This document shows, in pieces, positions 10,427-53,363 of a stretch of 64,000 nt of DNA; positions within the stretch are counted from its first letter, which is position 1, and every line of letters starts with the position of its first letter. This stretch comes from an uncultured Planctomycetales bacterium (GTDB lineage: Bacteria; Omnitrophota; Gorgyraeia; Aquiviventales; Aquiviventaceae), in assembly GCA_964373175.1 (NCBI GenBank), contig CAYJTP010000001.1:41654-105653 (forward strand), in the 5' to 3' direction. The notes under the pieces are model-generated. The model saw only the letters and a program-made list of their open reading frames with translations, had not been told where the DNA came from and ran no database searches. Made by a program: the position numbers and the translations under genes.

Positions 10427-10434
10427 CGCTGATG

Positions 10435-17310: not shown

Positions 17311-19397
17311 CAGGGAAGCCACTTCGGCGGGTGGTGATGAAACCGCATGAGGGCCTCCAGACTCAGGTCCAGCCAGCGGAACGACCGCAGGGATCTCCGG
17401 ATGAAGTACAGGAACGCCAACCACCGAACCCACTCCGGGTCCACGCCGATAGTCTTCGCGTAGGTTCGGCATGAAGCCGAAACCCTCTTGCGCCAGTCCG
17501 GCTGCTCCAACCGAAGGACGTTTTGCCACACGTTCCCCCCTGTACGGACTTGGACGGCGTTCAGCCACAGATGGAACCAATCCAAGAACGGCAGTTCCCT
17601 CCGGTCGGATTCTTCCCAGTCAACGATCCCGCAGCGCTGCCCATCCCAAAGAAGATTGCAGGGATGGTAATCGCCATGCTGGCACACCGCAAACAATGGG
17701 CTCGTCGGAAGACCTTGGAGCTCCTGATCGAGGTTGGCGAGGACGCGGTAGACGTCCCGGTACGGCCATGTATAACGGGCCGGTTCGAGCCTCTCTTGAA
17801 GCTGAAGAGCTGCTCCCAACAGTTTGGCTCTGACAACGGATGGGCTCAACGGCACACGCGTCGCCGCATGGAACGCCCGGAGCCATTCCTGCGCGGCTTC
17901 CAAGGCACCATCAAGCTCACCACCCTGGAGATGTTCCACCGGAATACCCGCCATCTTTCGGTACACGAACACAGCCGTCTCGCCATGCACGATGGAATCC
18001 ACAGGGACGGGGAGTGGGCGGGAGAGTGGAGGAGGAAGTTCCTGACGCAATTGTTGTACGATCTCAAACTCACGACCTGCTCGGATCCGGTCCTCCGAGA
18101 CCGTCACCCATTTCAGGACGAATGACTGCCCACTCGATGTTGTCTCCCCTAGCCAGCGCATGGCCCCCTCGAGATTCGGAAGTGGGCGGAAGGAAACAGA
18201 CAGATGAGTGGGTTTGGACTGACCGCACCACGCCTCCCAGCGACCGCTCACGACTTCCTTGAGATGCTCCACGTCGTGTCCATGGGGATTCGCGAGCTCC
18301 TGGGGCTTGTGGACTAGCCAACTGGTGTGAGGGATGAGCCAATCCAGTAGTCCCCAGCTGGCCATCTGGATCTTGACCAGGGTCTTGAGGTTCCATGGCT
18401 TTCCCTGGTCCAGCTGACCCAGCCGAGTGGCGAATATCCCACGCTGGTCGGCCGGGATGAGTTCACGGATGTCGTGGTAGGAGGGGCGCGGCCAGAAGAG
18501 CCGGGGCTCTTGGAATCCCGCCTGTGCGAGGAGCCGACGATACCCCCATGTGGAGTGCGTGACGGTCCGATACGGTTTTCCCGTCCGCCACCTGGAATAG
18601 AGTGTCGCCACCCGGTAGGGCAGCACAGAGATATACCGAAGCTTTGTGTGAGGATCCGGTGCCCCTCGAAAGGCGTCAACGCTGAACCGATTCTCGATGC
18701 CTAAATACAGCCAGCCGCCTGGCCGCAAGATCCGTTGTGCTTCGCGCAACATGGCTAGCTGTTTCTCACGCGGATGCCCGTGACTCGCCAGAGGAACCCA
18801 CTCCAACACCCCATTCATGATCACCAGGTCAAAGGAATTCGACGTGAAGGGAAGCAGCCGTTCGTTTCCCCCACACAAGACCTTCACCTGCGCCTCGAGT
18901 CCCTGTTGGCGAATACGCAACGCCGTAAAGAGCGCTCGCTCAAAGGAAAGATCCATGCTCACGACGTGGGCGCCCCTCTGGGCCCACGCGGTCGTCAGCG
19001 TCCCGCAGCCACAGCCCAGATCGAGAACCCTCCATGGCTGCGGCAGCGGAGGCAGGTGGATGGCCCAGGCGATCCGCGTCGGATTCACCAACAGCTTATA
19101 GAGACCGGGACGATTCCACTCTCTGGCCAGCCGTTCTGCCTCTTCCAACCATCGCTCACTCCGGAGCGCCTCGAGCAGCTTCTGGGTCTCTTCCCGACCC
19201 AGCCGTTCCCAAAAGATCGGCGAGCGTGTGAGGATTGGGATGCCCTCCCGCACAGGCCACTCCAACCGGCACCGAGCGCATCGCAGAGCATCTTCCTGCT
19301 GAACCTCCGCTCCACAATTCGGACACGTGAGGTCTTGCTCTCCGCCGCCACGCGTGGCCGATCCTGCAAGAGGCTTGGCGAGCTCGATACCTGCCAC
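17310..19397 (-). CDS. tridomain protein: Trm112-like zinc ribbon + class I SAM methyltransferase + protein-kinase/APH-like kinase domain (WbdD-like O-polysaccharide chain terminator candidate)
   Basis: 695 aa. CPNCG...CARCRLEWPVREGIPIL ribbon; VLDLGCGCGTLT motif I; C-terminal HGDYHPCNLLWD (HGDxxxxN catalytic loop) and DWE (DFG-like) as in eukaryotic-like/aminoglycoside kinases. This is the same domain order as E. coli O9a WbdD. Confidence 0.7.
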   Translation of the reverse strand: MAGIELAKPLAGSATRGGGEQDLTCPNCGAEVQQEDALRCARCRLEWPVREGIPILTRSPIFWERLGREETQKLLEALRSERWLEEAERLAREWNRPGLYKLLVNPTRIAWAIHLPPLPQPWRVLDLGCGCGTLTTAWAQRGAHVVSMDLSFERALFTALRIRQQGLEAQVKVLCGGNERLLPFTSNSFDLVIMNGVLEWVPLASHGHPREKQLAMLREAQRILRPGGWLYLGIENRFSVDAFRGAPDPHTKLRYISVLPYRVATLYSRWRTGKPYRTVTHSTWGYRRLLAQAGFQEPRLFWPRPSYHDIRELIPADQRGIFATRLGQLDQGKPWNLKTLVKIQMASWGLLDWLIPHTSWLVHKPQELANPHGHDVEHLKEVVSGRWEAWCGQSKPTHLSVSFRPLPNLEGAMRWLGETTSSGQSFVLKWVTVSEDRIRAGREFEIVQQLRQELPPPLSRPLPVPVDSIVHGETAVFVYRKMAGIPVEHLQGGELDGALEAAQEWLRAFHAATRVPLSPSVVRAKLLGAALQLQERLEPARYTWPYRDVYRVLANLDQELQGLPTSPLFAVCQHGDYHPCNLLWDGQRCGIVDWEESDRRELPFLDWFHLWLNAVQVRTGGNVWQNVLRLEQPDWRKRVSASCRTYAKTIGVDPEWVRWLAFLYFIRRSLRSFRWLDLSLEALMRFHHHPPKWLP

Positions 19398-19398
19398 C

Positions 19399-20679
19399 TT
19401 AGCTTCCTCCTGCCAGCCGTCTGGCTAACTGCGCGAGGCGCTGATGCGCTAAGCCGTCGCAAGGACCACACACGAACCTGACCAAGCGTCTGCGCTCCTC
19501 TTCCAAATACCGAGGATTCTCTAAGAAGCGATTGATACCGGCAATGAGACTCTCTTCATCCTGGGCGACCCAGGTTGCCCCGGTGTCCCGCACGACCCGA
19601 AAATGGCGCTGCCAGTGATCGTGGTGGATGTTGCGCTCAAACACCTCCGGATGCGCCCCATCGAACGCCACGTTGACCACCGGCGTATCGACCAAGCACG
19701 CTTCCAAGGTGATCGTCGAAGCGATGTTGACCACGACCGCGCTGTGACGAAGGAGATTCGCGATGTGGGTACTTTCCTCAAGCGTGGGATCCCATCCGAG
19801 GACACGGGAAACCCGATGAAACCGGTCAAAACGAAGGTCCGGGATCGATTCGAACTGCTCGTATTGGAAGCTCTGGAGCGGATGGGGCCGACAGAGAAAT
19901 TGGGGATTCCCCACGAATCGTTTCTGACGAACCGCCTGCGCGATCCGCTCAATGAAAAACCCACTGTCGATCTGAGGCATTCCCGTCGCAAGCGTCACCA
20001 CAGGACGGGAAGGATCCAGTTGCAACCTGTGAAGGAACTCCTCCCTTGGGAGGAAGGTGGAGGGAGAAGCATACACATCAAACTGGAGCGCGCCGATCAC
20101 CTCCACCTGTTCGGGGACGTAGTGGTACCGCTGGATGGCTTGCTCCTTCATGATGTCATTCCACACCGCAAGGACATCCGGCCGCTCCAACATCAAGCCT
20201 TTCATCCCGGTGAGGTTGTCCCAACTGTGGACCGCGTAAAGCGTCTGCACCCCGGCTGCCCTCGCTTCCCGAATTAACGGCACGTCGCGTGTCGTCGAGA
20301 ACCCAACGGAAGCCACCACCAACAGGTCTGGCCTGAGCGCGGCGAGGACTTGTCGATAGTGCGCCGGCCGAAACGTGCGGTACGCGGTGTGGTGCATCTG
20401 CATCGCTGCCAGGAAGAGGCCCCGATGAGGCAGGCTCATCTGACAGACCTTCCACAGCGCACGCTCCCAGAGAGCCCGGCCAATCGGCTCGTCGATCAAG
20501 GGAAAGAATGAGACGCGGCCATCCCATCGAAACTCATTCACAAAGTGGGGATCCTCCGCACCGGGACTAAAGATGGCCAGGTGCGTGAGGGGATCAGTCA
20601 ACAGGGCCCTCGGGAATCCGCTGCGTAAGAGAAACCGCGCATAGCGTCCCAACGAGACAGAGAGCGCGATCGTCGACAT
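19399..20679 (-). CDS. surface-carbohydrate/capsule biosynthesis protein, putative GT-B-fold glycosyl- or phospho-transferase
   Basis: About 426 aa, soluble. C-terminal ASTITLEACLVDTPVVNVAFDG resembles GT-B nucleotide-sugar-binding segments of capsule/teichoic-acid-type transferases. The track ORF begins at GTG 20706; ATG at 20679 is preferred. Family assignment is tentative. Confidence 0.5.
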   Translation of the reverse strand: MSTIALSVSLGRYARFLLRSGFPRALLTDPLTHLAIFSPGAEDPHFVNEFRWDGRVSFFPLIDEPIGRALWERALWKVCQMSLPHRGLFLAAMQMHHTAYRTFRPAHYRQVLAALRPDLLVVASVGFSTTRDVPLIREARAAGVQTLYAVHSWDNLTGMKGLMLERPDVLAVWNDIMKEQAIQRYHYVPEQVEVIGALQFDVYASPSTFLPREEFLHRLQLDPSRPVVTLATGMPQIDSGFFIERIAQAVRQKRFVGNPQFLCRPHPLQSFQYEQFESIPDLRFDRFHRVSRVLGWDPTLEESTHIANLLRHSAVVVNIASTITLEACLVDTPVVNVAFDGAHPEVFERNIHHDHWQRHFRVVRDTGATWVAQDEESLIAGINRFLENPRYLEEERRRLVRFVCGPCDGLAHQRLAQLARRLAGGS

Positions 20680-20681
20680 CC

Positions 20682-21611
20682 CTACACACCGTTTGTCCGG
20701 ATCCACCAGTTCTTCATAGTCGCCAGTGGGGTTTTCACGGTATTGATCAGGAACCGCCTCCGAACTTGGCCCCCCGCCTTCTCATACGGCACCTGTTCCA
20801 GGTGAGTGAAGCGCCGCTCAGTCTTTTGGGCTAGAAAGCGCAGTTGCACGACATAGCGCTTCCGAATCTGCCAAAACCGAACGACGCGAAACCCACTCAC
20901 GTGTAACAGCAGCCTCGCTGTGCCCTCCCCATACATGAAGGGATGGTCAATTTGGGCATCGACCTTCAGGAACGAGGAGGCGCGAACGACATCCGGGACG
21001 TCCACATAGAGGAACCCGCCAGGTTTCACGAGCCGGTAGACACTGCGCAGCGTCCCCACAGGCTGAACCACATGATTCAAGGTCCGTGCCAGAATCACCA
21101 GATCAAAGGTTTCGGAGTCGAACTCCGATCCGTCGAACGCCTGTTGGAGCACCGGGATCCCCAACGCCCTCGCCCTTCCACAGGCCACTTCATTCGGTTC
21201 CACCCCAACCACCTGGACCCCGCAGGTCTCCCGCAGGAGCGCGAGAAGCCCACCTTGGTCACACCCGATCTCCAGGACCTTGGAATGGGGGGCAAACTGA
21301 GCGATTTCTTTGAGCCCCTGATCGACGAGCCACTGACCGAACGCTCGCTGCGCGGCTACTCGCTCTTCCCCGTTGTCGATCGTCTCGGTCAACAGTCGGT
21401 AATCATGTTGGTAAAATCGGCTATATCCCTCCGTGGACCACATCGGGTTGAAAAACAGCAACCCACACCGTCTGCAGAGGACAATCTGGATCGGGAAGCC
21501 GTACTTTTCATCGGTCGGCAGCCCTTTCAATCGGTCGGAGCCACAGAGCGTACAGACCCGAGATTGCAGGAAGAGACGGTACCGATCAAAGAGGGTCTGC
21601 GCGAATTCCAT
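20682..21611 (-). CDS. SAM-dependent methyltransferase with N-terminal Cys4 zinc-binding domain (Methyltransf_13-like; sugar C-/O-methyltransferase-like)
   Basis: 309 aa. CTLCGS...CRRCGLLFFNP zinc ribbon; VLEIGCDQGGLL motif I. Confidence 0.75.
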   Translation of the reverse strand: MEFAQTLFDRYRLFLQSRVCTLCGSDRLKGLPTDEKYGFPIQIVLCRRCGLLFFNPMWSTEGYSRFYQHDYRLLTETIDNGEERVAAQRAFGQWLVDQGLKEIAQFAPHSKVLEIGCDQGGLLALLRETCGVQVVGVEPNEVACGRARALGIPVLQQAFDGSEFDSETFDLVILARTLNHVVQPVGTLRSVYRLVKPGGFLYVDVPDVVRASSFLKVDAQIDHPFMYGEGTARLLLHVSGFRVVRFWQIRKRYVVQLRFLAQKTERRFTHLEQVPYEKAGGQVRRRFLINTVKTPLATMKNWWIRTNGV

Positions 21612-21613
21612 GC

Positions 21614-22510
21614 TCAGACGTAGCCCGGACTGACGGGCGACTTGACCCTGCGCAGCTTCGTGAGGATTGGGCGCTCCCGCTCATAGACCACCTTGTTTCC
21701 ATCTCCAAGGATAACAGGAACTGCCCGGACATACTTGACCAAGAGCTCTAACCCATGGGGCTCAAGGCTTGCCGCCTGGTCCGAGCCCCACATGGCTCGA
21801 TTGAGCGTGATGTGACGCTCGACCATGCAGGCTCCCAGGAGGGTCGCAACCACCGAGGGCATGACGCCGGTCTCATGCCCGCTGTATCCGATCGGACACT
21901 GAGGAACGCGCTCCTTCAGTCGGGCGATGAGGCTGAGATTCAACTCGTCATCTTCAGCAGGATACGTGGAGGTACAATGGAGAATCACGAGGTCCTGTCG
22001 GCCCAACACCTCCACGGCGTGCTCAATCTCCTCCATCGTGCTCATGCCGGTGGAAAGAATCACTGGTTTTCCCTTCGAGCGAGTATGGCGCAAGAGGTGG
22101 TCATCGGTGAGGGAGGCAGAAGCAATCTTGTAGCCAGGAGGATTGAATCGATCGATGAAATCAACGGATAGCTCATCCCAACATGAGGCGTACCAGAGGA
22201 TCCCTTGTTGTCTGCACGTCCGAACGATCTCGTCGTACTCCTCCTCGTCCAATTCCAGTCCACGTTTGAGGTCCCCGTTCGTCGGCCCAAACGGGTTCTC
22301 CCGAGGTCGGCTCAATTCCGCCGGGGTGTAGACGACGTCCACGGTTCTCTTTTGGAACTTGACCGCATCTGCCCCCGCGCGGACGGCCACATCGATGAGC
22401 TGTTTCGCTAGCTCGATGTCCCCGTTGTGATTAATCCCAATTTCCGCTGTGATGAAGCAGGGGTGTCCTTCCCCTACCTGACGACCACCGATGGACACCA
22501 CGCCACCCAT
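21614..22510 (-). CDS. N-acetylneuraminate-synthase (NeuB) family aldolase without C-terminal SAF domain
   Basis: 298 aa. CFITAEIGINHNGDIELAKQLID...DAVKFQ...IGYSGHETG are NeuB/PseI/LegI hallmarks. It ends before the SAF (antifreeze-like) domain. Confidence 0.8.
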   Translation of the reverse strand: MGGVVSIGGRQVGEGHPCFITAEIGINHNGDIELAKQLIDVAVRAGADAVKFQKRTVDVVYTPAELSRPRENPFGPTNGDLKRGLELDEEEYDEIVRTCRQQGILWYASCWDELSVDFIDRFNPPGYKIASASLTDDHLLRHTRSKGKPVILSTGMSTMEEIEHAVEVLGRQDLVILHCTSTYPAEDDELNLSLIARLKERVPQCPIGYSGHETGVMPSVVATLLGACMVERHITLNRAMWGSDQAASLEPHGLELLVKYVRAVPVILGDGNKVVYERERPILTKLRRVKSPVSPGYV

Positions 22511-22530
22511 GAACGCGCTTCTCCTTTTTT

Positions 22531-23382
22531 CTACCAGCAGGTTAACCCACCATCCACGATCACATTGGCTCCTGTCATGTAGGATGACGCATCAGAAACG
22601 AGGAACAGGACCGCCCCTTTGTACTCATCCCGATGCGCCATCCTTCCCAGTGGAACTCGATGGGAGTACTGTCGCACGAAACGAGACTCGTGCCCGTCAA
22701 ATACCCCGCCTGGCGAGAGGGCATTCACCCGGATTCCTTGCGTTGCCCAGTAGGTCGCCAGGTAACGGGTAAATTGAATGACACCCGCTTTCGTTGTGGC
22801 ATACGCAATGGGGGTGTTAAACGGCTGCCCCGTAGAGGGGTTTTTGACCCCCCGATAGATGCGGTGGTCAGGCGCCACCACCCCGGCCGTGGAGGCCACG
22901 TTGAGAAGGACCCCGCGGCGCTGCTTCAGCATGATCTTCCCGACCGCCTGGGTGCAAAGAAACAACCCGGTCAAATTGACTTCCAGGGCCTGTCTCCACA
23001 GCGCAGCGGGGTACTCCTCGAACGGAGCAAAGTAGGAGCGCGCCGTCCCCGCCCCTTGCTTCACGGTCATGGCCGCGTTGTTGATCAGGATATCCACCCG
23101 GCCACATATGTTGACCACCTGACGAACCATCTTGGCCACCTGATCCGGCTTGGTGATGTCTGTCCGGACTCCGAAGACCTCGGTGCCAAACTGGCCTTTG
23201 AGCGCGATCGTAGCCTCATGGATCGCCGCAGCGTCCTGATCGACCAACACCGACACTCCGCCGGCTTCGGCGATTGCCTCTGCGTGCTTGCGGCCAAGCA
23301 TCCCTGCCCCACCGGTGATCACCGCGACGCGTCCGGTCAAATCGAACAGCTCATGCACACTTCTCGACTTATCCCGCATCAC
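22531..23382 (-). CDS. SDR-family short-chain dehydrogenase/reductase
   Basis: VAVITGGAGMLG (TGxxxGxG), NNAA, YATTKAG (YxxxK). Confidence 0.85.
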   Translation of the reverse strand: MMRDKSRSVHELFDLTGRVAVITGGAGMLGRKHAEAIAEAGGVSVLVDQDAAAIHEATIALKGQFGTEVFGVRTDITKPDQVAKMVRQVVNICGRVDILINNAAMTVKQGAGTARSYFAPFEEYPAALWRQALEVNLTGLFLCTQAVGKIMLKQRRGVLLNVASTAGVVAPDHRIYRGVKNPSTGQPFNTPIAYATTKAGVIQFTRYLATYWATQGIRVNALSPGGVFDGHESRFVRQYSHRVPLGRMAHRDEYKGAVLFLVSDASSYMTGANVIVDGGLTCW

Positions 23383-24472
23383 AGGTCACTGCTTCACCGG
23401 TCAGCATTGAGCGCTTCACCGCCAGGGCGACCTTCAAACTTTGAAGCCCATCCCAGAGACTGACCTTGGGACTGGCCTGGCCTGTCAGACAGGCCAAGAA
23501 ATGCTTCCATTCAGACAGGAACAGGTGGTTCCGTTCAAGCCCATCGAACCGATACACGTGAGGTGCCTTGGAGCCGGCGTTCCACATCTGAACCGTCTGA
23601 CGGTCATCATCCCAGGCCATCTTTCCCTCGGATCCTACGACGAGACACGATCTCACCGGCGGCTGCTGCAGATAGTCCATATGGACGTGGACAGGAAGCA
23701 GCCGTCCGTCTTCGAGGGGAAAGGACAGCAATGCGGATACCGTATCTTCGGCGTCGACCTCGAGGCGTCCTGACCTGCCTCCGATGGCAAAGACCCGCCG
23801 TGGCGCGCCAAACAACCAGCACGCCATATCAAATTCATGGATCTGAGTTAACACGGCTCCTCCCCCGAGCTCAGCCCTCGCGGCGTAGCTCGTTCGGTAG
23901 TCCTCGTAAGGGTGCCATTGCGGCAGGTACTCCCCGATCTCCAACCGGGCCTCAAGGGGGGCCCCGACCGCCTGCTCTCGAAGCAACCGATGGAGCAGTT
24001 CAAGTCCGGGGTGGAAACGAAACTGGTAGCCCATCAATACCACGAGTTGCTTCTCCTCCACCAGCTGAAGCAGCCGATCCACCCCCTCCAAGGAATGTGA
24101 GAGGGGCTTCTCGATGAGCAGATGACATCCGGCCTGAGCACAGGCAAGAGCCACCGGGATGTGCAGCGCGGTGGGATTGGCGATGACCGCCACTTCCGGT
24201 TTTTGCGCAAGGGCTTCTTCAAGATCTCGGAAGGAGGTCACTCGATAGGCCGCTTCCAGAGAACGGCTTGGATCGATGGCCATCTCCTCGGTCAACACCG
24301 CTTGGGATCCTCGAACTCGATAGGCCAGAATTTCCACATCGGAACCTAAGAGCGCTCGGATGTTTCTAAGATGCCGCTGCCCGACCCCGCCAAGTCCCAC
24401 TATCAGGACTTTTCGGGGAATCACCGCTGGAGACACGCGACGTTCCCTGGTGAGGGTTGTCTGGTTGATCAT
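23369..24472 (-). CDS. Gfo/Idh/MocA-family NAD(P)-dependent oxidoreductase
   Basis: VLIVGLGGVGQRHLRN N-terminal Rossmann fold; EKPLS motif; C-terminal alpha/beta domain. ATGA overlap with the downstream gene. Confidence 0.85.
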   Translation of the reverse strand: MINQTTLTRERRVSPAVIPRKVLIVGLGGVGQRHLRNIRALLGSDVEILAYRVRGSQAVLTEEMAIDPSRSLEAAYRVTSFRDLEEALAQKPEVAVIANPTALHIPVALACAQAGCHLLIEKPLSHSLEGVDRLLQLVEEKQLVVLMGYQFRFHPGLELLHRLLREQAVGAPLEARLEIGEYLPQWHPYEDYRTSYAARAELGGGAVLTQIHEFDMACWLFGAPRRVFAIGGRSGRLEVDAEDTVSALLSFPLEDGRLLPVHVHMDYLQQPPVRSCLVVGSEGKMAWDDDRQTVQMWNAGSKAPHVYRFDGLERNHLFLSEWKHFLACLTGQASPKVSLWDGLQSLKVALAVKRSMLTGEAVTCDAG

Positions 24473-25218
24473 GCGGGATGCCGCTGAACCATCGGCTGCG
24501 GCAGGACCTTGCCCTCGTTACGAGCTTTCATGAGGCGCTCCGCCACGTGAAGCGATTCCTCGTAGTCAATCTCCACACACGGCTCCTGAATCCGAAAGGG
24601 CAGAACCCGGGGGCCTGTCATCGAATTCAATTTCAGAATCGTCTGTGATCGTATGACGTCGACGTATCCGTTCTGCCAGAACATCTCGGGGAGCATCTGA
24701 CGTGGCTGGTTGTAAGGCTCCGGAACCCCGTCGAGCTCAAGCAGGGGCTTCAGATACCTGTCAACGATCCTCCACATCTTGTACGGAGTCTGAACCGGCC
24801 ACGAAACGGATCGAAGAGCGGTCGCCTCCTGATGCGCCTCCAGGGCGTCGATCGCCGCAGCGATCGTCTCGACGTTCCTGACCGGACAGGTGGGGCGAAG
24901 GTGAACCACGAGATCCGGTTCGTATCCCTGCTGCTCTTTGAGCCACCTCATCGCGTGCTGAAACACAGGCAGATCCGGTGTCCGGTCCTGGGCCAGCTCC
25001 GCAGGTCTGAGGAACGGGACCTCCGCTCCTCCCGCTAACGCGACCTGGGCAATTTCCGGATCATCGGTTGAAACCACGGTCCTCGTGATGTACCCGCACG
25101 CCAGGGCGTCTTGGATCGTGTAAACGATCAGAGGTTTTCCATACACAGACCGAAGATTTTTTCGCGGAATTCCCTTCGATCCGCCACGGGCCGGAATGAG
25201 CGCTAGGATCTCAGACAT
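24469..25218 (-). CDS. acylneuraminate cytidylyltransferase family (CMP-nonulosonic acid synthetase, NeuA/PseF-like)
   Basis: Start at ATG MSEILALIPARGGSKGIPRKNL...GKPLIVYTI...VPFLRP. The track ORF starts at an upstream GTG. Confidence 0.8.
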   Translation of the reverse strand: MSEILALIPARGGSKGIPRKNLRSVYGKPLIVYTIQDALACGYITRTVVSTDDPEIAQVALAGGAEVPFLRPAELAQDRTPDLPVFQHAMRWLKEQQGYEPDLVVHLRPTCPVRNVETIAAAIDALEAHQEATALRSVSWPVQTPYKMWRIVDRYLKPLLELDGVPEPYNQPRQMLPEMFWQNGYVDVIRSQTILKLNSMTGPRVLPFRIQEPCVEIDYEESLHVAERLMKARNEGKVLPQPMVQRHPA

Positions 25219-26036
25219 GTCAGGTGTTCTCGGATGAAGGACAGGTGACGCCACGCTGCCCGGATCGGATCGTTTCCCGGAGGGGTCTCCAGGATTAACG
25301 GACCCTGATATCCGACGTCTTGCAATGCCGCGAAGCAGGCTGGAAAATCGACCGCCCCGGATCCCAGCTCCACATTCGGTCCACCCAACGGCCGATCCTT
25401 GATATGGACACCGCCAATGAGGGGGCCCAGGAGTCGGATGTCAGCCGGGATGTCAAATCCTAACGCCGCGGCGTTGCCCACGTCATAGTAGGCCTTCACC
25501 AGTGGATGATCAGCCTGCCGAATCACGTCAAGGATCTGCCACGCCGGCTGATCCATCTCCAGCGCGAACTCCACTTCGGCGGCTTCAGCTTCGGGCAGGG
25601 CTTCTCGCAGGCACGCGAGGAAGGCTGACCTGTCGTCTGCCGTCTGCAGCGCCGCGTCCTCCAGGATCGGAATCCCAATGCGCTTCGCACCGACAGACTG
25701 GGCCGCCTGGATCAGGTCGTGAAGCAGGTGCAGACGCTGGGTGCGTGCGTTGGGCTGCCCACGAAAGAAGGGCTGGGTCTTGAAGACGTCGGCGCAGATC
25801 GAGGAGAGGGGCAGACCATCCCGACGCGCCAATGCCTTCAGCCTGTTTCTCCCCTCGTGAGACAGCAACGGGTTCGATGCGACGTCCTCTGCTGTCACCA
25901 AGAGCTCGAACGCCGTAAACCCAATCTCCGTCGCCCACGCAAACTCCTGTTCCCATGTCTGCACCGGGAAGATCTGAAGCCGACCGTCCATCGATCGCGA
26001 CAGACGTCCCTGGAGGATTCCAATGCGGTTCGTCAT
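25203..26036 (-). CDS. sugar-phosphate isomerase/epimerase (xylose-isomerase-like TIM barrel)
   Basis: 277 aa. TIM-barrel AP-endonuclease-2/xylose-isomerase-like pattern (GFTAFELL..., HIKD..., ILETP). Confidence 0.65.
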   Translation of the reverse strand: MTNRIGILQGRLSRSMDGRLQIFPVQTWEQEFAWATEIGFTAFELLVTAEDVASNPLLSHEGRNRLKALARRDGLPLSSICADVFKTQPFFRGQPNARTQRLHLLHDLIQAAQSVGAKRIGIPILEDAALQTADDRSAFLACLREALPEAEAAEVEFALEMDQPAWQILDVIRQADHPLVKAYYDVGNAAALGFDIPADIRLLGPLIGGVHIKDRPLGGPNVELGSGAVDFPACFAALQDVGYQGPLILETPPGNDPIRAAWRHLSFIREHLTCLRS

Positions 26037-27487
26037 GTCTCAGTGCGCGCTGGGACCAGGGTGACTGACCGACCATGCAAGGGGATCACATAGTCGCGCC
26101 GCGCTCGAGCCAACTGCACCTCGACCCTCCTCCGGAAGTTGGCTCCTGCCTCGTTCAGTTCACCAACAATGGCGTCGCTCACCTGGCGCACGGTCTGATC
26201 ATCAAAGTATTTGTCCGTGGTTTCCCATTTCCCATCGGGAACGATCCGCCATCGATGGAACGACCAATCTCGATGTACGCCGAGTTGCATCCGTACCCGT
26301 GCCAGGACGTTCGAGGAACGCGTCGACCTGGGCCACTGCACACCATAGGCCAATGCTTTGCATCGCTGCAGTCGAACCCTCTGACCGTCTCGGCCGTTGA
26401 GCGATGCCAAGATGCACGCGGCGACTCGGTCATGAGCACGACCATCGACCCGATAGAACCAATCTTGAATCACGTCGGTGAGGCGCTGTCGAATGTGCGT
26501 GGGAACCTCAAAGCCACCTCGCAAGATCTCCCTCAGGTTCCCCTTCAGCTCCTCCTCTGAACCACACGGAATGCTGACCGCCTCGACCGAGGGGATCTTC
26601 ACCGCATCAGGCATCCATGCTGGCGACAGGGTTGGCACACCGACCATGCCGGCTTCCACCCCTGTGGTACAGTTCTTCTGAATGAGGGCTTTGGACCGGA
26701 GGATCCAACCTTCCACCGTTCCTGACTTCACTAAGTGCAAGTTCGGCAGAGGCTCCAGCAGTTCCTGATACCTGTCAGTGCGTTCAAATGGATGAGGTCG
26801 ATAGACAAACGTCGCCGTGGGGAATTCCCGGGCCAGGCCGTTCGACAACGCGGTCAAGCCTCTCATCAACTGCCGCTCGCGCTGCTGAACGCCCAACAGT
26901 TCCTGCTGATCCTGCCCAAACCACTTGACGGTTGCCGCGACAACGCTTTCCGGAGTGAGCGCGATCGGGTTGGCAAGCGGAAAGTTTCCATTGATGAGCA
27001 CCAGGGGCTGTCCGTATCGCTCGACATACCCGGACGCTTCCAGAGCTGCCCGACGCCATGGCTCCACATAGAAATCCGATCGGGGCGTCCCGGTGAGCCT
27101 GACCTGTCGTGACGAATACCTGCCGCTGCGAAGGACGTAGTCGGCCAACAGCAGCCCCCAGCTACAGAAAAACTCCGCCTGGTCTCGCAACGTCTGGTCG
27201 TCACCCATCGCCTCGGCATACATCTCGATGCTCGGGAGCACCCCTCCCTCTTTGTCCAAGACACCAAACGGAATGCCCGCTGACACGAGGGCCCGGACAA
27301 AGGGTTCGTTCGTTTTATGCATCTGATTCACCAGCACAAAGTCTGGGGCCAAGGCGGGGATTTCGCTCCATCGCAGGTTGTATGGGACGAGATGTGACAC
27401 GATCCCTTCTTGGCACAGCCGATGGGCCACCAACACTGCGCTGGGGATGTCCCGGTAGGGACTATCCACGATTAACGCGACCCGCAT
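26033..27487 (-). CDS. surface-carbohydrate biosynthesis protein, putative GT-B-fold (CMP-sugar-dependent?) transferase
   Basis: 484 aa, soluble. Same tentative family as 19399..20679 (paired hydrophobic beta-alpha segments, TGVEAGMVGVPTL). Assignment is tentative. Confidence 0.5.
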   Translation of the reverse strand: MRVALIVDSPYRDIPSAVLVAHRLCQEGIVSHLVPYNLRWSEIPALAPDFVLVNQMHKTNEPFVRALVSAGIPFGVLDKEGGVLPSIEMYAEAMGDDQTLRDQAEFFCSWGLLLADYVLRSGRYSSRQVRLTGTPRSDFYVEPWRRAALEASGYVERYGQPLVLINGNFPLANPIALTPESVVAATVKWFGQDQQELLGVQQRERQLMRGLTALSNGLAREFPTATFVYRPHPFERTDRYQELLEPLPNLHLVKSGTVEGWILRSKALIQKNCTTGVEAGMVGVPTLSPAWMPDAVKIPSVEAVSIPCGSEEELKGNLREILRGGFEVPTHIRQRLTDVIQDWFYRVDGRAHDRVAACILASLNGRDGQRVRLQRCKALAYGVQWPRSTRSSNVLARVRMQLGVHRDWSFHRWRIVPDGKWETTDKYFDDQTVRQVSDAIVGELNEAGANFRRRVEVQLARARRDYVIPLHGRSVTLVPARTET

Positions 27488-29010
27488 CCTCGGAATCCTT
27501 CCTCGGCCACCCGCAGGGCTCCTCGTCCGTCGACCAGCTGCTGTCCTGTCGAGGACATGTGGTCCTGTAATTGTTCATCGTCTCGCAAGCGGTTCACCAA
27601 ACGCGACACACGGGACAGCAGCCTTGGATCCCCTGCCCGGCCGGCGAACTGAACGGCTCCGAGACCAGCCAGGGCCTTCAGTTGTGCTCGTTGATTCTCG
27701 GCCACCTCAATAGCGATCGTTGGACATCCGACACAGGCCAGCTCATAGAGCGATTGCCCTCCCGCGGTAATCGCCACATCGGCCTGCACCATGTAGTCAA
27801 CCAGTTGCGTGGGGCTCTCCACGACACACACGGGACGCCTGAGTCGCTTGACCAGCGATCTGATCCGTTCTGGGTTTTTGAAAAACGGCCCAAGGATCGC
27901 GGTCACGCTGAACTCGCCTTTTAATTCCTCTAAGAGACCCAGCAACCCTGGCATCAGGTGATGGGGATCCGAACCACCCCCGAGCATCACCAACACCTCC
28001 TGCACTCTTGGGCGTGGTCTCCGTCTGGGAGGACTCCAAAATTCCGGACGAAGCAGGGCGTACGCTGGACCCAACAGGAACCGCGTGTCTCCCGATGAGG
28101 AACGGTAGGACAGGTTGCGCGCATGGGCACCGGGGCTGACGACCAGCTGACAGGGAAACGGAAAACGGCCCAGATCGTCAATGGCCATGACGAACAAGCC
28201 GGCCGCTCGCAAACGAAGGAGGTACTCTGCGTCCACATGGTAGGAATCCACCACGACCCCTTCGCACCGACACCGGGCGGAGATCGCCAGCGTGTGTAAC
28301 AGGTCGGACGGTCCACCTCGTTCGATACCATTCATGCGCTCACTCTGAAAACCAAGGCCGGACAGGTGCCTCTCCACACCAGGGTCCCCATCGGACAGGA
28401 AGCAGGAACTGAGCCCCTTTTTGAATGCGAAGGCCTTTGCCAACGCACAGCAGCGCTGGAAATGGCCCAGCCCGCTCTTCGCGCTCGCGTCCACACGGAA
28501 CAGCATCTGTCGTGGTTCCTGTTGGCGATCCCGGTACACGAACTCCAGCACCTCCCCTTCAGCAGATCGCCGCGTGAGAGCCAACACGAACCCAACCCGC
28601 TCAAATGCCTTTCGAGAGGCGTCGTTACCCGCTTTGACCAGCGCCACAACCCGCTCGATCCGATCCCACTTCAGTGCCAACTGGCATACGCGGCGGATGG
28701 CGCTCACCCCATACCCCTGTCCTCGTTCGGCAGAATCCACGCTGAGGTGAATGAAGACGTCAGGAATCTTTGCCTCCAGCCGAACATACCCGATGGGGGT
28801 CTTTGATTCATTGAGGATGACGAACAGCGTCACCGTGGGATCGCGCAGGACCCGGTGGTACCAGTTCTTGTGGAGCGGATACTCAATGGGTGTCATGTCG
28901 AAGGAGGCCCGGCGCGTCTCCGGTTCGTTCCTCCACTCCCAGATACGCCGGCAATCCTCCGGTGTCCCTCGCCGCAGTGTGACCGTCGGCGATCCCGCCA
29001 CCTCACGCAA
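27472..29010 (-). CDS. bifunctional PseH-like GNAT N-acetyltransferase / PseG-like UDP-2,4-diacetamido-2,4,6-trideoxyhexose hydrolase (MurG-like GT-B)
   Basis: N-terminal GNAT (TPEDCRRIWEWRNEPE..., VALVKAGNDASRKAFERVGF). C-terminal MurG/PseG-like domain (LVMLGGGSDPHH..., ITAGGQSLYELACVGCPTIAI). The track ORF starts at GTG 29058; TTG at 29010 is preceded by AGGAGG with a 6-nt spacer and sits 2 nt after the upstream stop. Confidence 0.7.
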   Translation of the reverse strand: MREVAGSPTVTLRRGTPEDCRRIWEWRNEPETRRASFDMTPIEYPLHKNWYHRVLRDPTVTLFVILNESKTPIGYVRLEAKIPDVFIHLSVDSAERGQGYGVSAIRRVCQLALKWDRIERVVALVKAGNDASRKAFERVGFVLALTRRSAEGEVLEFVYRDRQQEPRQMLFRVDASAKSGLGHFQRCCALAKAFAFKKGLSSCFLSDGDPGVERHLSGLGFQSERMNGIERGGPSDLLHTLAISARCRCEGVVVDSYHVDAEYLLRLRAAGLFVMAIDDLGRFPFPCQLVVSPGAHARNLSYRSSSGDTRFLLGPAYALLRPEFWSPPRRRPRPRVQEVLVMLGGGSDPHHLMPGLLGLLEELKGEFSVTAILGPFFKNPERIRSLVKRLRRPVCVVESPTQLVDYMVQADVAITAGGQSLYELACVGCPTIAIEVAENQRAQLKALAGLGAVQFAGRAGDPRLLSRVSRLVNRLRDDEQLQDHMSSTGQQLVDGRGALRVAEEGFRGCGSR

Positions 29011-30061
29011 CGTCACCCTCCTGCAGCGCTGATTCAGCCGCAATGGCTCGCCGCACACGCCTGCCGAGCAGCTCGTCGAAGCGCTCCGGCTTCACTCCTC
29101 CATCCAAATTCCCACACCGCAGGACCGCGATGTTGTCGCGGGTCAAGACCTCTCCCGAGATGAGCTGCCGAACCGCGAAGATACTCCGGCGCGCAAACTT
29201 CCTCAACTCCGCCTCAACGGCCTGGACCGTCTTTTCACCGGATCCCAAGGCTCGTTCTCCTTCGCGGATCTTCTGAACCATCTGGTGCAATTCATGGGGC
29301 TCAAGCGCAAACGAGTGATCCGGCCCAGGCAGTGCGTTGCTTAAGGTGAAATGCTTTTCGATGAGGTCCGCCCCTAAGGCGACGGCGGACAAGGGCCCAA
29401 CAACCGGATCGCGCGAGTGGTCTGAGAATCCCACGGGGACACCAAATGCGGCTTTCATGCTCGCAACCGCCCGGAGATTCAGAGACTCCAGGGGTGCAGG
29501 ATACGCCGCCGTACAGTGCATCAAGATCAGGTCGCCGTTTCCGGTCCGTCGGAATTCCTCAACCGTGTTGGACACCTCCTCCAAGTTCGCGGCGCCCGTG
29601 GAGATGATCACCGGCTTGCCCTTCTTCGCTATATGTCGCACGAGGGGAATGTGGGTCATCTCATAGGAGGCAATCTTGAAGGCGACCACGTAGGGGTGAA
29701 GACGATCTGCCGTCTCTTCGTCGAACACAGAAGCAAGGAAGAGGATGTCTTTTTCCCGACAGTAGGCCGACAGCTCCGGCAACCATTCATAGGGCATCTG
29801 CATCTCGGCGATGATGTCATAGATGGAACGAGGATCCTTCAGGTACTCGCTGTGGCCCGCCCCTTTTGGATAGAGCGTCTCCGCACGGAACAGTTGGAAC
29901 TTCACGGCATCGGCGTTGGCAGAGGCCGCCACATCGATGAGTCGCTTGGCCTGCTGAAGACTGCCGTTATGGTTGCTGCCCGCCTCCGCGATGATGCAAC
30001 AAGGCTGCCCGTCGCCGATCCATCGACTGCCAATCCGCACCTTGGAAACCCCTGGTGTCAT
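29003..30061 (-). CDS. pseI: pseudaminic acid synthase / N-acetylneuraminate synthase family with C-terminal SAF domain (PseI-like)
   Basis: 352 aa. CCIIAEAGSNHNGSLQQAKRLID...DAVKFQ...GFSDHS plus a C-terminal SAF domain. Adjacent to the PseH/G fusion. Confidence 0.8.
   Translation of the reverse strand: MTPGVSKVRIGSRWIGDGQPCCIIAEAGSNHNGSLQQAKRLIDVAASANADAVKFQLFRAETLYPKGAGHSEYLKDPRSIYDIIAEMQMPYEWLPELSAYCREKDILFLASVFDEETADRLHPYVVAFKIASYEMTHIPLVRHIAKKGKPVIISTGAANLEEVSNTVEEFRRTGNGDLILMHCTAAYPAPLESLNLRAVASMKAAFGVPVGFSDHSRDPVVGPLSAVALGADLIEKHFTLSNALPGPDHSFALEPHELHQMVQKIREGERALGSGEKTVQAVEAELRKFARRSIFAVRQLISGEVLTRDNIAVLRCGNLDGGVKPERFDELLGRRVRRAIAAESALQEGDVA
29017..29022 (-). promoter_or_regulatory. 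Shine-Dalgarno AGGAGG for the TTG start of the PseH/PseG fusion
   Basis: Perfect AGGAGG 6 nt upstream of the in-frame TTG at 29010. Confidence 0.4.
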
Positions 30062-30095: not shown

Positions 30096-32093
30096 TTACG
30101 GTTCCCGGAATACCGGCTGCACCGGTTCTCCTTGCAACCGACTTCTCACATCGTCCGATCGAATAGCCGTGGCCAGAACCTGCAGGGCTTCCCGATACGC
30201 GCGAAGCGTCTGCTCGACATCCGCGTCGCTGTGGCTGTACGAGATATTCTGGCCTCCAGAAAACAGGATTCCCCTCTTGACGCATTCTTGTTGGAACAAA
30301 CTTTTGAGCGCCAGAGACTGTCTTTCCCTGTCGTCTGTGAAGACGATCACGGTGCGAGGCGGCAGACCGATGCACTCGGTGGTACGCTCTAAGCCCAACG
30401 CTCGTGCCAGCGCGTTGTATCCGTCCTTCAGCTTCCGTCCCTGGTTCCACAGGTGCTGGATCACGTCTTTCTCCCGAATCTCCGTAATCGTCGCCATGGC
30501 CGCAGCAAGGGACAGCGTCTCTCCTCCAAAGGTACATGAGAAGAAGACCTCGTCGAACAGCTTCATGATCTCTGCCCGACCAACCACAGCCGCCAGAGGA
30601 TAGCCGTTGGCCATGGCTTTACCAAGGCAGGTCAGATCTGGGATAACCCCAAGGAGCTCTTGCGCCCCACCTACGGCCAGACGAAACCCAGTGATCACCT
30701 CGTCAAAGATCAACACGGCACCCTCGCGGTGGGCCAGCTCCCGGACCTGTTGCAAGAAGCCCTCGAGGGGCTCCACCACGCCGACGGGCTCCATGATGAC
30801 GGCTGCCACTTGGCCAGGATGCTCGGCGAAGATGCGCTTCAAGCTGTCAAGGTTGTTGTACTCAAACGGGATCGTGAGTTCCCGGACCACCTTTGGTACA
30901 CCGTTGTTCCGACTTGTCGTGCCGATGTACCAATCCTGCCAGCCGTGGTACCCGCAGCAGGTGATCAGATCGCGTCCGGTGTAGGCACGCGCCACCCTCA
31001 CCGCTCCGGCCGTCGCGTCGGATCCGTTCTTGGCAAAGCGGACCATCTGCGCAGACGGAATGATGCGGGTGAGCATCTCGGCCAGCTCCACTTCCAAGGG
31101 ATGAGGCAAGGTGAAGGTCGTCCCGTCTTCGAGCTGACGCAGCACCGCCTTCGTGACCGACGGATAGTTGTGACCGAGAATCACTGGCCCCAGGGCCATC
31201 GGGTAATCAATGTACTCGTTCCCGTCGACGTCCCACACACGACACCCCTGGCCACGCTTCAAGAACACAGGAGATGCTCCTTGGATAAACTGCGTGGGGC
31301 CTTTGCTGAACGTCTGCGAACACGAGGGGATCAAAACGCTCGCCTTTTTCTTGAGTTCAAGGGAACGAGCGAGCCTGCGACGGTTGATCTGGGCAAGAGC
31401 GGGTTCTCGTTCCAGAAGCTGAAGGATCTCTTTGAAACCAAAGGAGAGCCCGTTCGAACTGAGTCTCGCATAGACCGAGCGGACAAACTCCAGATCAGAC
31501 GGTTCATCCACTGCCCAATGGAGATTCAGCGGGGAGAGATCGACCTCATGTTCGACATTGCGGGTGCGAAAGCGACCCGACGTGCGGAGGTACGGTGTGA
31601 CATGCTCCCGTTCCGCAGATGACCGGGCCTCCTGGTGGGCCCTCTCTAGGGCCTGAAAACTGAAGACCTCCACATCGAGACCATCGGGATAAGTATAGCG
31701 GAGCGTGTTGGTGACATAGTCGTAGCCTCCCTCACGGTACGCAGCCACAACCCGATCCAACACCTCTGGGTCGATCAGCGGACAATCCGCTGTGATGCGG
31801 GCGACCACATCGGCCTTAACCTGCTTGGCCACCTCGTACGTGCGACCCAGGACATCGTGTTCGCTACCCCGAAGACATCGAATCCCGTCCTTCCGGCAGA
31901 ACTCGACAATGGCGTCATCGATGGGCTCTGTCGAGGTCGCGACCACCACCTCGTCCACCTGCCGAGCTTGGCGGACCTGACCGACCACCCGCTTGAGCAG
32001 TGGCATTCCAGCGACGTCCATGAGGACCTTCCCGGGTAACCGGGTTGAGCCCATTCGCGCCTGGATCACGGCCACCACCCGCTCCTCCTTCAT
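30096..32093 (-). CDS. fusion of SpsF/NeuA-like cytidylyltransferase and class-III (glutamate-1-semialdehyde aminomutase-like) PLP aminotransferase
   Basis: 665 aa. N-terminus VAVIQARMGSTRLPGKVL (SpsF/CMP-sugar synthetase-like). C-terminus HNYPSV..., FDEVITGFRLAVGGAQ..., LTCLGKAMANGYPL (class III aminotransferase with PLP lysine). Confidence 0.75.
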   Translation of the reverse strand: MKEERVVAVIQARMGSTRLPGKVLMDVAGMPLLKRVVGQVRQARQVDEVVVATSTEPIDDAIVEFCRKDGIRCLRGSEHDVLGRTYEVAKQVKADVVARITADCPLIDPEVLDRVVAAYREGGYDYVTNTLRYTYPDGLDVEVFSFQALERAHQEARSSAEREHVTPYLRTSGRFRTRNVEHEVDLSPLNLHWAVDEPSDLEFVRSVYARLSSNGLSFGFKEILQLLEREPALAQINRRRLARSLELKKKASVLIPSCSQTFSKGPTQFIQGASPVFLKRGQGCRVWDVDGNEYIDYPMALGPVILGHNYPSVTKAVLRQLEDGTTFTLPHPLEVELAEMLTRIIPSAQMVRFAKNGSDATAGAVRVARAYTGRDLITCCGYHGWQDWYIGTTSRNNGVPKVVRELTIPFEYNNLDSLKRIFAEHPGQVAAVIMEPVGVVEPLEGFLQQVRELAHREGAVLIFDEVITGFRLAVGGAQELLGVIPDLTCLGKAMANGYPLAAVVGRAEIMKLFDEVFFSCTFGGETLSLAAAMATITEIREKDVIQHLWNQGRKLKDGYNALARALGLERTTECIGLPPRTVIVFTDDRERQSLALKSLFQQECVKRGILFSGGQNISYSHSDADVEQTLRAYREALQVLATAIRSDDVRSRLQGEPVQPVFREP

Positions 32094-40023: not shown

Positions 40024-40033
40024 CACCGGGGAC

Positions 40034-42323: not shown

Positions 42324-42326
42324 GGC

Positions 42327-45840: not shown

Positions 45841-46541
45841 CGGCTGTATTCTCCTGAGCCACACAATTGTAGGAGAGCCTGCGCGAGCCTCAATCCATCC
45901 TCGTCATGGAGATCGACCTGGCTACTCACATCCCGGACTGGAACTAACCCGATTCGATCTCCAAGCCGTCTACCAGATCGAACGATGTCGGCTCGAATGG
46001 CGGTCGCCATCCCCGCCAACTCCTTATAGGTAGGTTGCACCTGATGACGCGTATGATCTCCCTCCTCAGGGTGGAGCTGCTCGAGGCTGTTTTCCGAAAA
46101 CCGCCAGAAGCGATGGCGCTCCTCCCGAGCGGCAAAGACCGTATCCAATCCTTCTGTCTGAAGCACCTCGACGACATCGTCGATCAGCCCTGGTGGCCGG
46201 ATCGGATGCGTCACCTCGAGCAAGACCACAATATCCACCGGGTAAGAGTCCTCTTGCTCGAGCCACTGGAGGCAATGTTGGAGGACCTGAATCATCGGCA
46301 CCCCTGCAGCCGCGAGGTGGGGTGGTCGGAAAAAGGGGACCTCCGTCCCGTAACCCCTGGCCACCTCCGCGACCACGGCGCTATCCGTAGAGACGAGAAT
46401 CCGGTCCAGACATGTCGCCTGACGTGCGGCCTCAATCGTGTAGGTGAGCACCGGTTTTCCACACAGCAGGGACTCTGGTGTCATCTGGGCCTCCGGGTCA
46501 CTGCCCCGGAGCGGGATGATCGCTACCGTGTTCAGATGCAT
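45837..46541 (-). CDS. NeuA-family cytidylyltransferase (CMP-ulosonic acid synthetase-like), divergent
   Basis: VAIIPLRGS...GKPVLTYTIEAARQ...ILVSTDS...EVPFFRP follows the CMP-NeuAc synthetase pattern but lacks the GSKG loop. Confidence 0.65.
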   Translation of the reverse strand: MHLNTVAIIPLRGSDPEAQMTPESLLCGKPVLTYTIEAARQATCLDRILVSTDSAVVAEVARGYGTEVPFFRPPHLAAAGVPMIQVLQHCLQWLEQEDSYPVDIVVLLEVTHPIRPPGLIDDVVEVLQTEGLDTVFAAREERHRFWRFSENSLEQLHPEEGDHTRHQVQPTYKELAGMATAIRADIVRSGRRLGDRIGLVPVRDVSSQVDLHDEDGLRLAQALLQLCGSGEYSR

Positions 46542-53325: not shown

Positions 53326-53363
53326 GGGAAGGTTGTGCTCTAGGTCACTGGGTGAGATGTCTT

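Follow-up and report, generated by a model that had tools for sequence, protein, structure and literature searches.

We analyzed a 64,000-nucleotide stretch of contig CAYJTP010000001.1 (assembly GCA_964373175.1; hereafter the window) and found that five adjacent genes at positions 21614-26036 combine a phosphosugar-type, NANS-like synthase of the NeuB family, which lacks the C-terminal SAF domain, with an Ela-like activation and epimerization unit and a UlaE-like epimerase. Our preferred reading, held with moderate confidence and based on sequence comparison, is that the block is a self-contained module for a second cytidine monophosphate (CMP)-activated 3-deoxy-2-ulosonic acid. This acid would be made by a phosphorylated route, as in animals and Bacteroides, and not by the free-sugar route of NeuB, PseI, and LegI. 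An earlier interpretation made from the letters of this DNA (the sequence-only reading) had proposed a second NeuB/NeuA module, separate from a pseudaminic acid (Pse)-like module of the window and using a different precursor. It proved essentially right, and we suggest that the product would be Kdn-like.

The list of open reading frames (ORFs) and the Pfam matches showed that the interval is filled exactly by five minus-strand ORFs, which confirmed the compact five-enzyme block described earlier. In the order of transcription, these encode a UlaE-like TIM barrel with the xylose isomerase fold (25203-26036; 277 aa; AP_endonuc_2, 3.4e-33), a NeuA/ElaB-like cytidylyltransferase (24469-25254; about 251-261 aa; CTP_transf_3, 8e-21), a Gfo/Idh/MocA oxidoreductase (23369-24472; 367 aa; N- and C-terminal GFO_IDH_MocA domains), a short-chain dehydrogenase/reductase (SDR; 22531-23382; 283 aa; adh_short), and the NeuB-only protein, a putative SAF-less, NANS-like ulosonate-phosphate synthase (21614-22510; 298 aa; NeuB, 2.1e-75, model positions 1-241 of 241). 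The genes overlap or are spaced by 2-20 bp, which is consistent with a single operon.

The synthase had no SAF match in the Pfam scan, and there is no space for a SAF remnant because a methyltransferase gene begins 3 bp past the NeuB stop codon. A search of 5.8 billion proteins gave at least 8000 scored relatives of the short synthase; nearly all of the best 120 were 285-307 aa long, carried PF03102 only, and were 65-81% identical to it. Relatives of 285-303 aa end in a conserved ExP...KLRR tail. In species-representative genomes, a scan detected the family at more than 500 loci, with about 60-70% identity, in Cyanobacteria/Melainabacteria, Acidobacteriota, Chloroflexota, Planctomycetota, Myxococcota, Desulfobacterota, Actinobacteria, candidate-phyla bacteria, and one Thermoplasmata archaeon. 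When 76 family members were aligned, 97 of the 298 columns were conserved at 95% or more. The AlphaFold model (pLDDT 88, pTM 0.86) is a complete barrel with lower confidence in the 55-90 loop and a C-terminal helix that bears the invariant E279, P281, and K285-L286-R287. Its Foldseek matches were Neisseria meningitidis NeuB, PseI, SpsE, and the Leptospira protein 6NCS (285 residues). The missing SAF domain is a family-defining trait and not a truncation; a truncated gene or pseudogene was ruled out by the family-wide length, the conserved tail, and the folded model. A survey from 2021 had already counted about 30% of the catalogued NeuB sequences as lacking SAF, from environmental organisms and with no function assigned (PMC8208679).

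The synthase fell short of the NCBIfam models for NeuB_NnaB (TIGR03569; 245 bits, cutoff 399.65) and PseI (TIGR03586; 202.6 bits, cutoff 340.25). By BLASTP, its closest characterized relative was human NANS (216 bits, 41% identity), followed by the SAF-bearing synthase of the window (184 bits, 39%), 6NCS from Leptospira (142 bits, 32%), BT1714 of Bacteroides thetaiotaomicron (140 bits, 33%), PseI (129 bits, 36%), N. meningitidis NeuB (127 bits, 30%), and SpsE (124 bits, 31%). Reciprocally, the top-scoring matches of NANS were members of the SAF-less family. The NANS reference was confirmed by exact look-up as NP_061819.2. The BT1714 sequence was obtained from gut metagenome contigs through its neighbor BT1713: it is the 346-aa ORF adjoining a copy 100% identical to the PDB protein BT1713, and an exact look-up returned the B. 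thetaiotaomicron "sialic acid synthase."

A bootstrapped neighbor-joining tree was built on 251 columns, with references that included no bona fide LegI sequence. The SAF-less family was monophyletic (100%) and grouped with NANS (100%), BT1714 was the next branch (63%), and the SAF-bearing synthase of the window joined SpsE (94%). The tree thus places the SAF-less clade, which is bacterial and archaeal, as sister to animal NANS and far from PseI, NeuB, and the SAF-bearing synthase. This is the phylogenetic placement that the sequence-only reading had called for. A duplicate of the PseI-like neighbor was ruled out by the 39% identity and the separate clade. An orthologue of BT1714 was likewise rejected, as BT1714 has a SAF domain and is 33% identical, although the pathway logic is still common to both. 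A 3-deoxy-D-manno-octulosonate (Kdo) pathway of the KdsA/KdsC/KdsB type did not fit either: the synthase is NeuB-type and not DAHP_synth_1, and KdsB models scored at most 47 bits against cutoffs of at least 155.

The alignment with N. meningitidis NeuB showed that the metal ligands (His215 and His236 in that enzyme) and the phosphoenolpyruvate (PEP) ligands are all kept. The corresponding residues of the synthase are E23, K51, Q53, K128, S131, S153, S210, H212, E231, H233, and D244. Three further features are common to the family, NANS, and BT1714 only: a Lys after the FQ motif (K54), the alpha2-beta2 loop F74-G75-x-T77-x-G79-D80-x-K82 (F/W-G-x-T-x-G-D/E-x-K/R), and an S/T-D...S motif. K54 and the loop motif are missing from N. 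meningitidis NeuB, PseI, SpsE, 6NCS, and the SAF-bearing synthase. NANS and BT1714 are known to act on sugar 6-phosphates (PMC6200933; PMC8208679), and K54 and the loop residues, which lie near the expected phosphate position, may bind that phosphate. The family ends exactly at the linker, where SAF starts in NANS and BT1714. The C-terminal SAF domain by which free-sugar synthases give Arg314 to the partner subunit has no counterpart in the synthase. As judged from the alignments, the synthase is under strong purifying selection and its active site is intact.

To describe the gene context of the family, ORFs were clustered around 82 loci and tblastn was run with the window proteins; the 56 loci with at least 4 kb on both sides of the synthase were taken as well flanked. 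The dominant partner was a C0-type HAD protein of ~165 aa, present in 48 of the 56 well-flanked loci and the sole partner of the synthase in 21. The best PDB match of this HAD is BT1713, the Kdn-9-phosphate (Kdn-9-P) phosphatase, and its best NCBIfam models are those for Kdn-9-P phosphatase and KdsC. In 22 loci there was a GmhA-like SIS gene, and P0098 has it as a fusion with the synthase. This partner scored 212 bits with the GmhA equivalog model (cutoff 209.45), and fragments scored 206 and 193 bits. It was commoner beside the synthase in lineages without lipopolysaccharide (LPS; 10 of 14 vs. 12 of 52; p=0.0013, uncorrected for phylogeny). Because the family travels with HAD and GmhA partners and has motifs shared only with NANS and BT1714, a sugar phosphate is indicated as the substrate, in line with the different precursor suggested before. 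Neither an HAD phosphatase gene nor a GmhA-like gene was found in the window by tblastn or with profile HMMs made from 66 and 24 family members, respectively. The HAD gene is also absent from loci L166, L170, and L085.

The other four enzymes of the block recur as a unit with the synthase in many phyla, so the block is not a chance juxtaposition. With XI for the TIM barrel, GFO for the Gfo/Idh/MocA enzyme, and CTP for the cytidylyltransferase, the order is NeuB-XI-GFO-CTP-SDR-HAD-SIS in Polyangiaceae and Planctomycetota, CTP-HAD-NeuB-XI-GFO-SDR-SIS in Chloroflexia, and CTP-NeuB-XI-GFO-SDR or XI-GFO-CTP-SDR elsewhere. The exact order of the window, with the same flanks, was seen in L166, where the synthase is 80% identical. 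The closest relative with an HAD gene, L167, has a synthase 75% identical and the order XI-CTP-GFO-SDR-NeuB-HAD. The cassette often stands apart from Pse and Leg genes: L053, L058, L070, L071, and L080 have it and no PseB, PseC, LegB, or LegC gene; this recurrence, together with the 39% identity and the different clade of the two synthases, bears out the separation of the block from the Pse-like module. In Alteromonas sp. a30, a gene for a Maf flagellin glycosyltransferase adjoins a variant with the order NeuB-HAD-CTP-SDR-XI-SDR-SDR and additional methyltransferases, and plasmids of Azospirillum thermophilum and Methylomagnum ishizawai have NeuB-HAD pairs with other accessory genes. The synthases of cassette loci are set apart from those of loci with the HAD as sole partner by one conservative residue difference. 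Since so little distinguishes the contexts, the substrate was taken to be a common metabolite and the accessory enzymes to act after the condensation. Our literature searches found no published description of this cassette, which is widespread and biochemically uncharacterized.

Some loci showed other surroundings. In the M. ishizawai plasmid pRS11DPr1 (L168, ~4886-10498), genes for a split transketolase-like pair, a class III aminotransferase, and an SDR come before those of the synthase and HAD. A second recurrent context of synthase and HAD was found in L009, L014, L042, L054, L064-L066, and L068 (NeuB homologue at ~10001). It has an RfbF-like nucleotidyltransferase, a dehydratase/epimerase, a DegT/E1-like enzyme, a YerE-like thiamine-diphosphate enzyme, an FkbM methyltransferase, a GT2 glycosyltransferase, and GtrA, in the style of a CDP-deoxyhexose or branched-sugar cluster. 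In L171, a 334-aa NeuB homologue is separated from an XI-GFO-CTP-SDR set by two KpsC/KpsS-type "Capsule_synth" genes (5617-8645), a hint that some lineages have a Kdo-transferase-like enzyme for the cassette sugar. Loci L019, L020, and L062 come from contigs binned under Alistipes, Anaerovoracaceae, and Muribaculaceae, and the gene order around their synthase is of the Gastranaerophilales type, which suggests mis-binning or recent transfer.

The best PDB matches of the Gfo/Idh/MocA enzyme, the cytidylyltransferase, and the SDR were 3EZY, 6IFD, and 6UH2. The same three entries served as search models for solving ElaA (Gfo/Idh/MocA), ElaB (CTP-transferase), and ElaC (SDR) of Acinetobacter baumannii KL49 (PMC13656337). 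In the Ela system, legionaminic acid activated with CMP (Leg5,7Ac2) is oxidized at the C8 hydroxyl; reduction of the ketone from the opposite face then yields 8-epi-legionaminic acid (PMC13656337). The same trio is found as PtmF/LegF/PtmA in legionaminic clusters (PMC4481668), and the window proteins are 47% (SDR), 35% (Gfo), and 32% (cytidylyltransferase) identical to the PtmA/PtmF/LegF-type trio of a Leg cluster of A. thermophilum. The likeness to Ela is indirect, drawn through these common nearest PDB entries and the A. thermophilum trio. As in KL49, the three genes stand side by side; unlike there, they are coupled to a phosphosugar-type synthase and a TIM barrel and not to lga/leg genes. 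The Acinetobacter aci module has four genes against three in ela and inverts a second center (PMC9676051). We annotate the Gfo enzyme as a putative ElaA/PtmF-like dehydrogenase that oxidizes a hydroxyl of the CMP-sugar, and the SDR as a putative ElaC/PtmA-like ketoreductase. The SDR scored 171 bits with a PRK09186-type NCBIfam model, below its cutoff, and the cytidylyltransferase 137 bits with PseF (cutoff 205.7). The GTG start of the latter overlaps the upstream gene by 52 nt and its relatives have 251 and 256 aa; the true start probably lies a few codons later. Orthologues in cassette loci are 50-58% identical for the cytidylyltransferase and 46-53% for Gfo. No LegB, LegC, or NeuC-type gene is present in the block, and the cassette has no dehydratase, aminotransferase, or NeuC, which speaks against the Leg-like product considered previously.

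The TIM barrel matched UlaE (3CQH) best in the PDB, at 71 bits, with all other entries below 29 bits; YcjR (6WN6) was a weak match (E=0.0076). All four metal and catalytic residues of UlaE (E155, D185, H211, and E251) are conserved. The score with the UlaE/SgbU NCBIfam model was 81 bits against a cutoff of 317, so that the likeness to UlaE is far under the family cutoffs, and the context is polysaccharide biosynthesis, not ascorbate or pentulose catabolism. This gene co-occurs with an SDR of the window type (19 of 20 loci vs. 4 of 36; Fisher p=4e-10). An exhaustive HMMER search found members of its family fused to HAD (P0203), to CTP_transf_3 (P0308 and P0342), and also to glyoxalase. Our annotation is a putative epimerase, metal-dependent, that works beside a keto group. 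A precedent for the combination is YcjS/YcjR/YcjQ of Escherichia coli, a pathway that unites a Gfo dehydrogenase, a reductase, and an epimerase of the xylose isomerase fold acting beside the ketone (PMC11543891). The Ycj enzymes and UlaE differ from our case in being catabolic, with glucosides or pentulose phosphates as substrates, and the Ycj reductase is not an SDR. In a Kdn-producing Serratia capsule locus, NeuB is fused to a COG1082 TIM-barrel domain (PMC9000132); a word-indexed search with the TIM-barrel protein of the window returned no NeuB-TIM-barrel fusion of this kind.

On the gene content and its conservation, the clade of the synthase, its retained active site, the partner statistics, and the fusions, all directly observed, we base the following proposal, in which the chemistry from condensation to transfer is conditional. 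The SAF-less synthase would catalyze the condensation of PEP and an aldose phosphate, for which mannose-6-phosphate (Man-6-P) is the likeliest candidate, to a Kdn-like nonulosonate 9-phosphate, as sequence and gene context suggest. Man-6-P is the default because of NANS, BT1714, and the Kdn-producing bacteria with NeuB-TIM-barrel fusions. A KdsC-type HAD encoded outside the window would remove the phosphate, and the cytidylyltransferase, from its family membership, would form the CMP-sugar. The Gfo/Idh/MocA enzyme may then turn one secondary hydroxyl of this CMP-sugar into a ketone; the UlaE-like TIM barrel may invert the stereocenter neighboring the ketone, and the SDR may reduce the ketone, yielding a stereoisomer of the initial acid with one or two edited stereocenters. 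These accessory enzymes are placed after activation because of the CTP-XI fusions and the Ela precedent. Finally, a methyltransferase would O-methylate the sugar, and a BFO_1060-like protein would transfer it onto a surface polysaccharide exported by an ABC transporter. The neighbors of the synthase do belong with it, as the sequence-only reading held and the recurrent gene set shows; they are probably a post-activation epimerization unit, and not the enzymes of precursor synthesis.

Two known pathways share this logic. Animal NANS, the N-acetylneuraminate-9-phosphate synthase that is also a Kdn-9-P synthase, has IGYSGHETG, ERHITL, and GSD..ASLEP in common with the window synthase, besides the Lys after FQ and the F/W-G-x-T-x-G-D/E-x-K loop. 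In its route, the condensation on a sugar phosphate is followed by dephosphorylation and CMP activation, as proposed here. The two enzymes differ in that NANS has a C-terminal AFP/SAF domain, while the window synthase stops at the linker, has a loop two residues shorter, and has Ser at the Glu134/Asp position. The Kdn pathway of B. thetaiotaomicron consists of BT1714, the phosphatase BT1713, and an adjacent cytidylyltransferase, the same three-enzyme logic; BT1714 has the Lys-Arg and loop motifs of the window synthase. A Bacteroides-like adjacency of synthase, C0-type HAD, and CTP_transf_3 was seen in L087. The Bacteroides locus has no Gfo, SDR, or TIM barrel, and the window has no phosphatase.

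Several observations weigh against the phosphorylated Kdn-like route with late stereo-editing. The catalytic Glu134 of N. meningitidis NeuB is replaced by Ser133 in the synthase, within a segment (IASASLTD) that is nearly invariant in the SAF-less family. Both characterized phosphosugar synthases, NANS and BT1714, carry the SAF/AFP domain, and BT1714 is just 33% identical to the window enzyme. With neither HAD nor GmhA-like gene in the window, the dephosphorylation step needs a gene from elsewhere in the genome, and the fusion and adjacency of GmhA suit heptose-7-phosphate better than Man-6-P. The Serratia NeuB-TIM-barrel fusion gives ordinary Kdn with no Gfo or SDR partners (PMC9000132); therefore, the TIM barrel may not epimerize a keto intermediate. 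The Ela proteins are proposed to recognize two N-acetyl groups, which the likely substrate of the window enzymes would not have. Finally, the order of the editing steps and the carbon that is edited are proposed by analogy with ElaA/B/C and YcjS/R/Q.

The GmhA-like partner leads to the alternative that survives best, which we regard as possible and yet unlikely. Here the synthase would join PEP to the product of GmhA, D-glycero-D-manno-heptose 7-phosphate, and form a ten-carbon (C10) 3-deoxy-ulosonic acid 10-phosphate that would then be dephosphorylated, CMP-activated, and edited. The genes for GmhA and the HAD phosphatase would lie near the cassette or in another part of the genome, and the activated acid would be methylated as well as epimerized. 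CMP-linked C10 ulosonic acids have been found in Magnetospirillum, with genes unassigned (bioRxiv 10.64898/2026.04.20.719630). The SIS partner stands at or near the GmhA equivalog cutoff, is fused to the synthase in P0098, and is enriched beside it in lineages without LPS (uncorrected for phylogeny). The seven-gene cassettes have no heptose kinase or nucleotidyltransferase that would otherwise use up heptose-7-phosphate. Compared with NANS and BT1714, the loop that may bind phosphate is shorter by two residues, and there is no capping SAF domain. Against this, neither the window nor its closest relatives have the GmhA-like gene, an enzyme of the GmhA type could just as well give Man-6-P from fructose-6-phosphate, and the nearest characterized enzymes act on hexose-6-phosphates. 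A further point against it is that SAF-less NeuB genes presumably occur in Kdn producers such as Streptomyces: a SAF-less NeuB sequence of S. scabiei (PMC8208679) and a Kdn teichulosonic acid (PMC11481543) have each been reported, and the two may be linked. If the C10 proposal were true, genes would for the first time be assigned to the "higher-carbon ulosonic acids" recently seen by mass spectrometry, and such sugars would be widespread, from candidate-phyla bacteria to Thermoplasmata.

It is rather improbable, in our view, that the module makes ordinary CMP-Kdn and that the Gfo enzyme, TIM barrel, and SDR serve to provide or regenerate its hexose-phosphate precursor, for instance through a redox-assisted 2-epimerization of glucose-6-phosphate. 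The TIM barrel does most resemble UlaE, a sugar-phosphate epimerase, HAD-XI fusions exist, and a Serratia locus with just neuA and the NeuB-TIM-barrel fusion makes Kdn (PMC9000132). However, Man-6-P is a universal metabolite, and the synthase stands with the HAD alone in 21 of 56 loci, with the same active site across contexts. The CTP-XI fusions and the Ela precedent put the enzymes after activation, and the Gfo and SDR resemble PtmF/PtmA-type proteins of nonulosonate clusters.

We consider it very improbable that the synthase acts like animal NANS on N-acetylmannosamine-6-phosphate (ManNAc-6-P) and leads to N-acetylneuraminic acid (Neu5Ac) or an epimer. NANS is its closest characterized relative, and Serratia strains also make some Neu5Ac (PMC9000132), but Kdn exceeds Neu5Ac by ~20:1 in Serratia, and no recurrent genes for the supply of ManNAc-6-P (NanE, NanK, GNE, or NeuC type) were found beside the family. 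Least probable of all is that the cytidylyltransferase, Gfo, and SDR together act as an epimerase of the Ela type on the sugar of the Pse-like module immediately upstream, with the short synthase a redundant or inactive paralogue: Ela does act on a diamino nonulosonate (PMC13656337), but the five genes travel together in loci without Pse or Leg genes, the Pse-like module has its own cytidylyltransferase (30096-32093), and the synthase is strongly conserved by purifying selection with an intact active site.

In sum, a very large and highly conserved SAF-less clade, sister to animal NANS, is nearly always found with a Kdn-9-P/Kdo-8-P-type phosphatase and has a recurrent four-enzyme activation and epimerization unit. 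These results offer a testable pathway for widespread surface sugars that genome mining based on NeuB, PseI, and LegI would mislabel as sialic or pseudaminic acid, and they name candidate genes for C10 ulosonic acids or for Kdn stereoisomers not seen before. They are also relevant to how the phosphorylated route to sialic acid arose in eukaryotes.

The five genes are most likely not the whole module, which probably continues to 19399; the phosphatase that is usually adjacent is missing from the window. The first added gene encodes a class I S-adenosylmethionine (SAM) methyltransferase (20682-21611, minus strand; 309 aa; Methyltransf_23). The equivalent position holds a methyltransferase in L001 and L166 (56% identity), and related ones stand beside the cassette in L083 and L085; the window enzyme is a probable O-methyltransferase for the module sugar and would belong to the module. 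The second encodes a BFO_1060-like protein (19399-20706, minus strand; 435 aa; NCBIfam NF046086, 74 bits, cutoff 200). Its positional counterpart in L166 shares 64% identity with it, and a family of 480-aa proteins encoded beside the cassette in 10-11 loci shares 24% (1e-22); the BFO_1060-like protein is a candidate glycosyltransferase for the CMP-sugar of the module. Directly downstream, a minus-strand gene (17310-19397) encodes a 695-aa fusion of a SAM methyltransferase and an APH-type phosphotransferase domain.

The whole window is one long array of minus-strand genes. It has Wzm/Wzt (41004-43214), a fragment of LptD (62428-63975), and beside them many sugar-nucleotide enzymes, the gene content of a surface polysaccharide locus dependent on an ABC transporter. 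The organism probably decorates one polysaccharide exported in this way with at least two chemically different ulosonic acids.

The Pse-like module lies upstream of the block and has its own synthase and cytidylyltransferase, distinct from those of the block. It includes PseB (40034-41035), PseC (38824-40026), a WbuX/HisH/HisF amidotransferase, a formyltransferase, and a GNAT protein. These are followed on the minus strand by a 665-aa cytidylyltransferase-aminotransferase fusion (30096-32093; CTP_transf_3 and class III aminotransferase), the other synthase of the window, with NeuB and SAF domains in Pfam (29003-30061), and PseG with an N-terminal GNAT domain (27472-29058). The aminotransferase half of the fusion is like glutamate-1-semialdehyde aminomutase (NF004856, 462 bits, slightly below the cutoff of 486). 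The SAF-bearing synthase scored higher with NeuB_NnaB than with PseI, both below cutoff, and it clusters with Bacillus subtilis SpsE (94% bootstrap) despite the PseB/PseC/PseG-type genes nearby. Between the Pse-like module and the block, a minus-strand gene (26033-27487) encodes a "surface carbohydrate biosynthesis protein" (TIGR04396, 244 bits, above the cutoff of 125) that also matches the glycosyltransferase model BFO_1060; its counterpart at the equivalent place in L166 is 52% identical.

A possible third acid-sugar module was found in the same operon (45837-54416, minus strand). It contains a type I-beta 3-deoxy-D-arabino-heptulosonate 7-phosphate synthase (52480-53517; NCBIfam 352.6, cutoff 335), a shikimate-dehydrogenase-like gene, a Gfo/Idh/MocA gene, a degenerate C-terminal piece of NeuB fused to GT2, a CTP_transf_3-methyltransferase fusion, a WaaA-like homologue of Kdo transferases, and one more CTP_transf_3 gene. 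This content suggests a CMP-activated sugar of the heptulosonic type.

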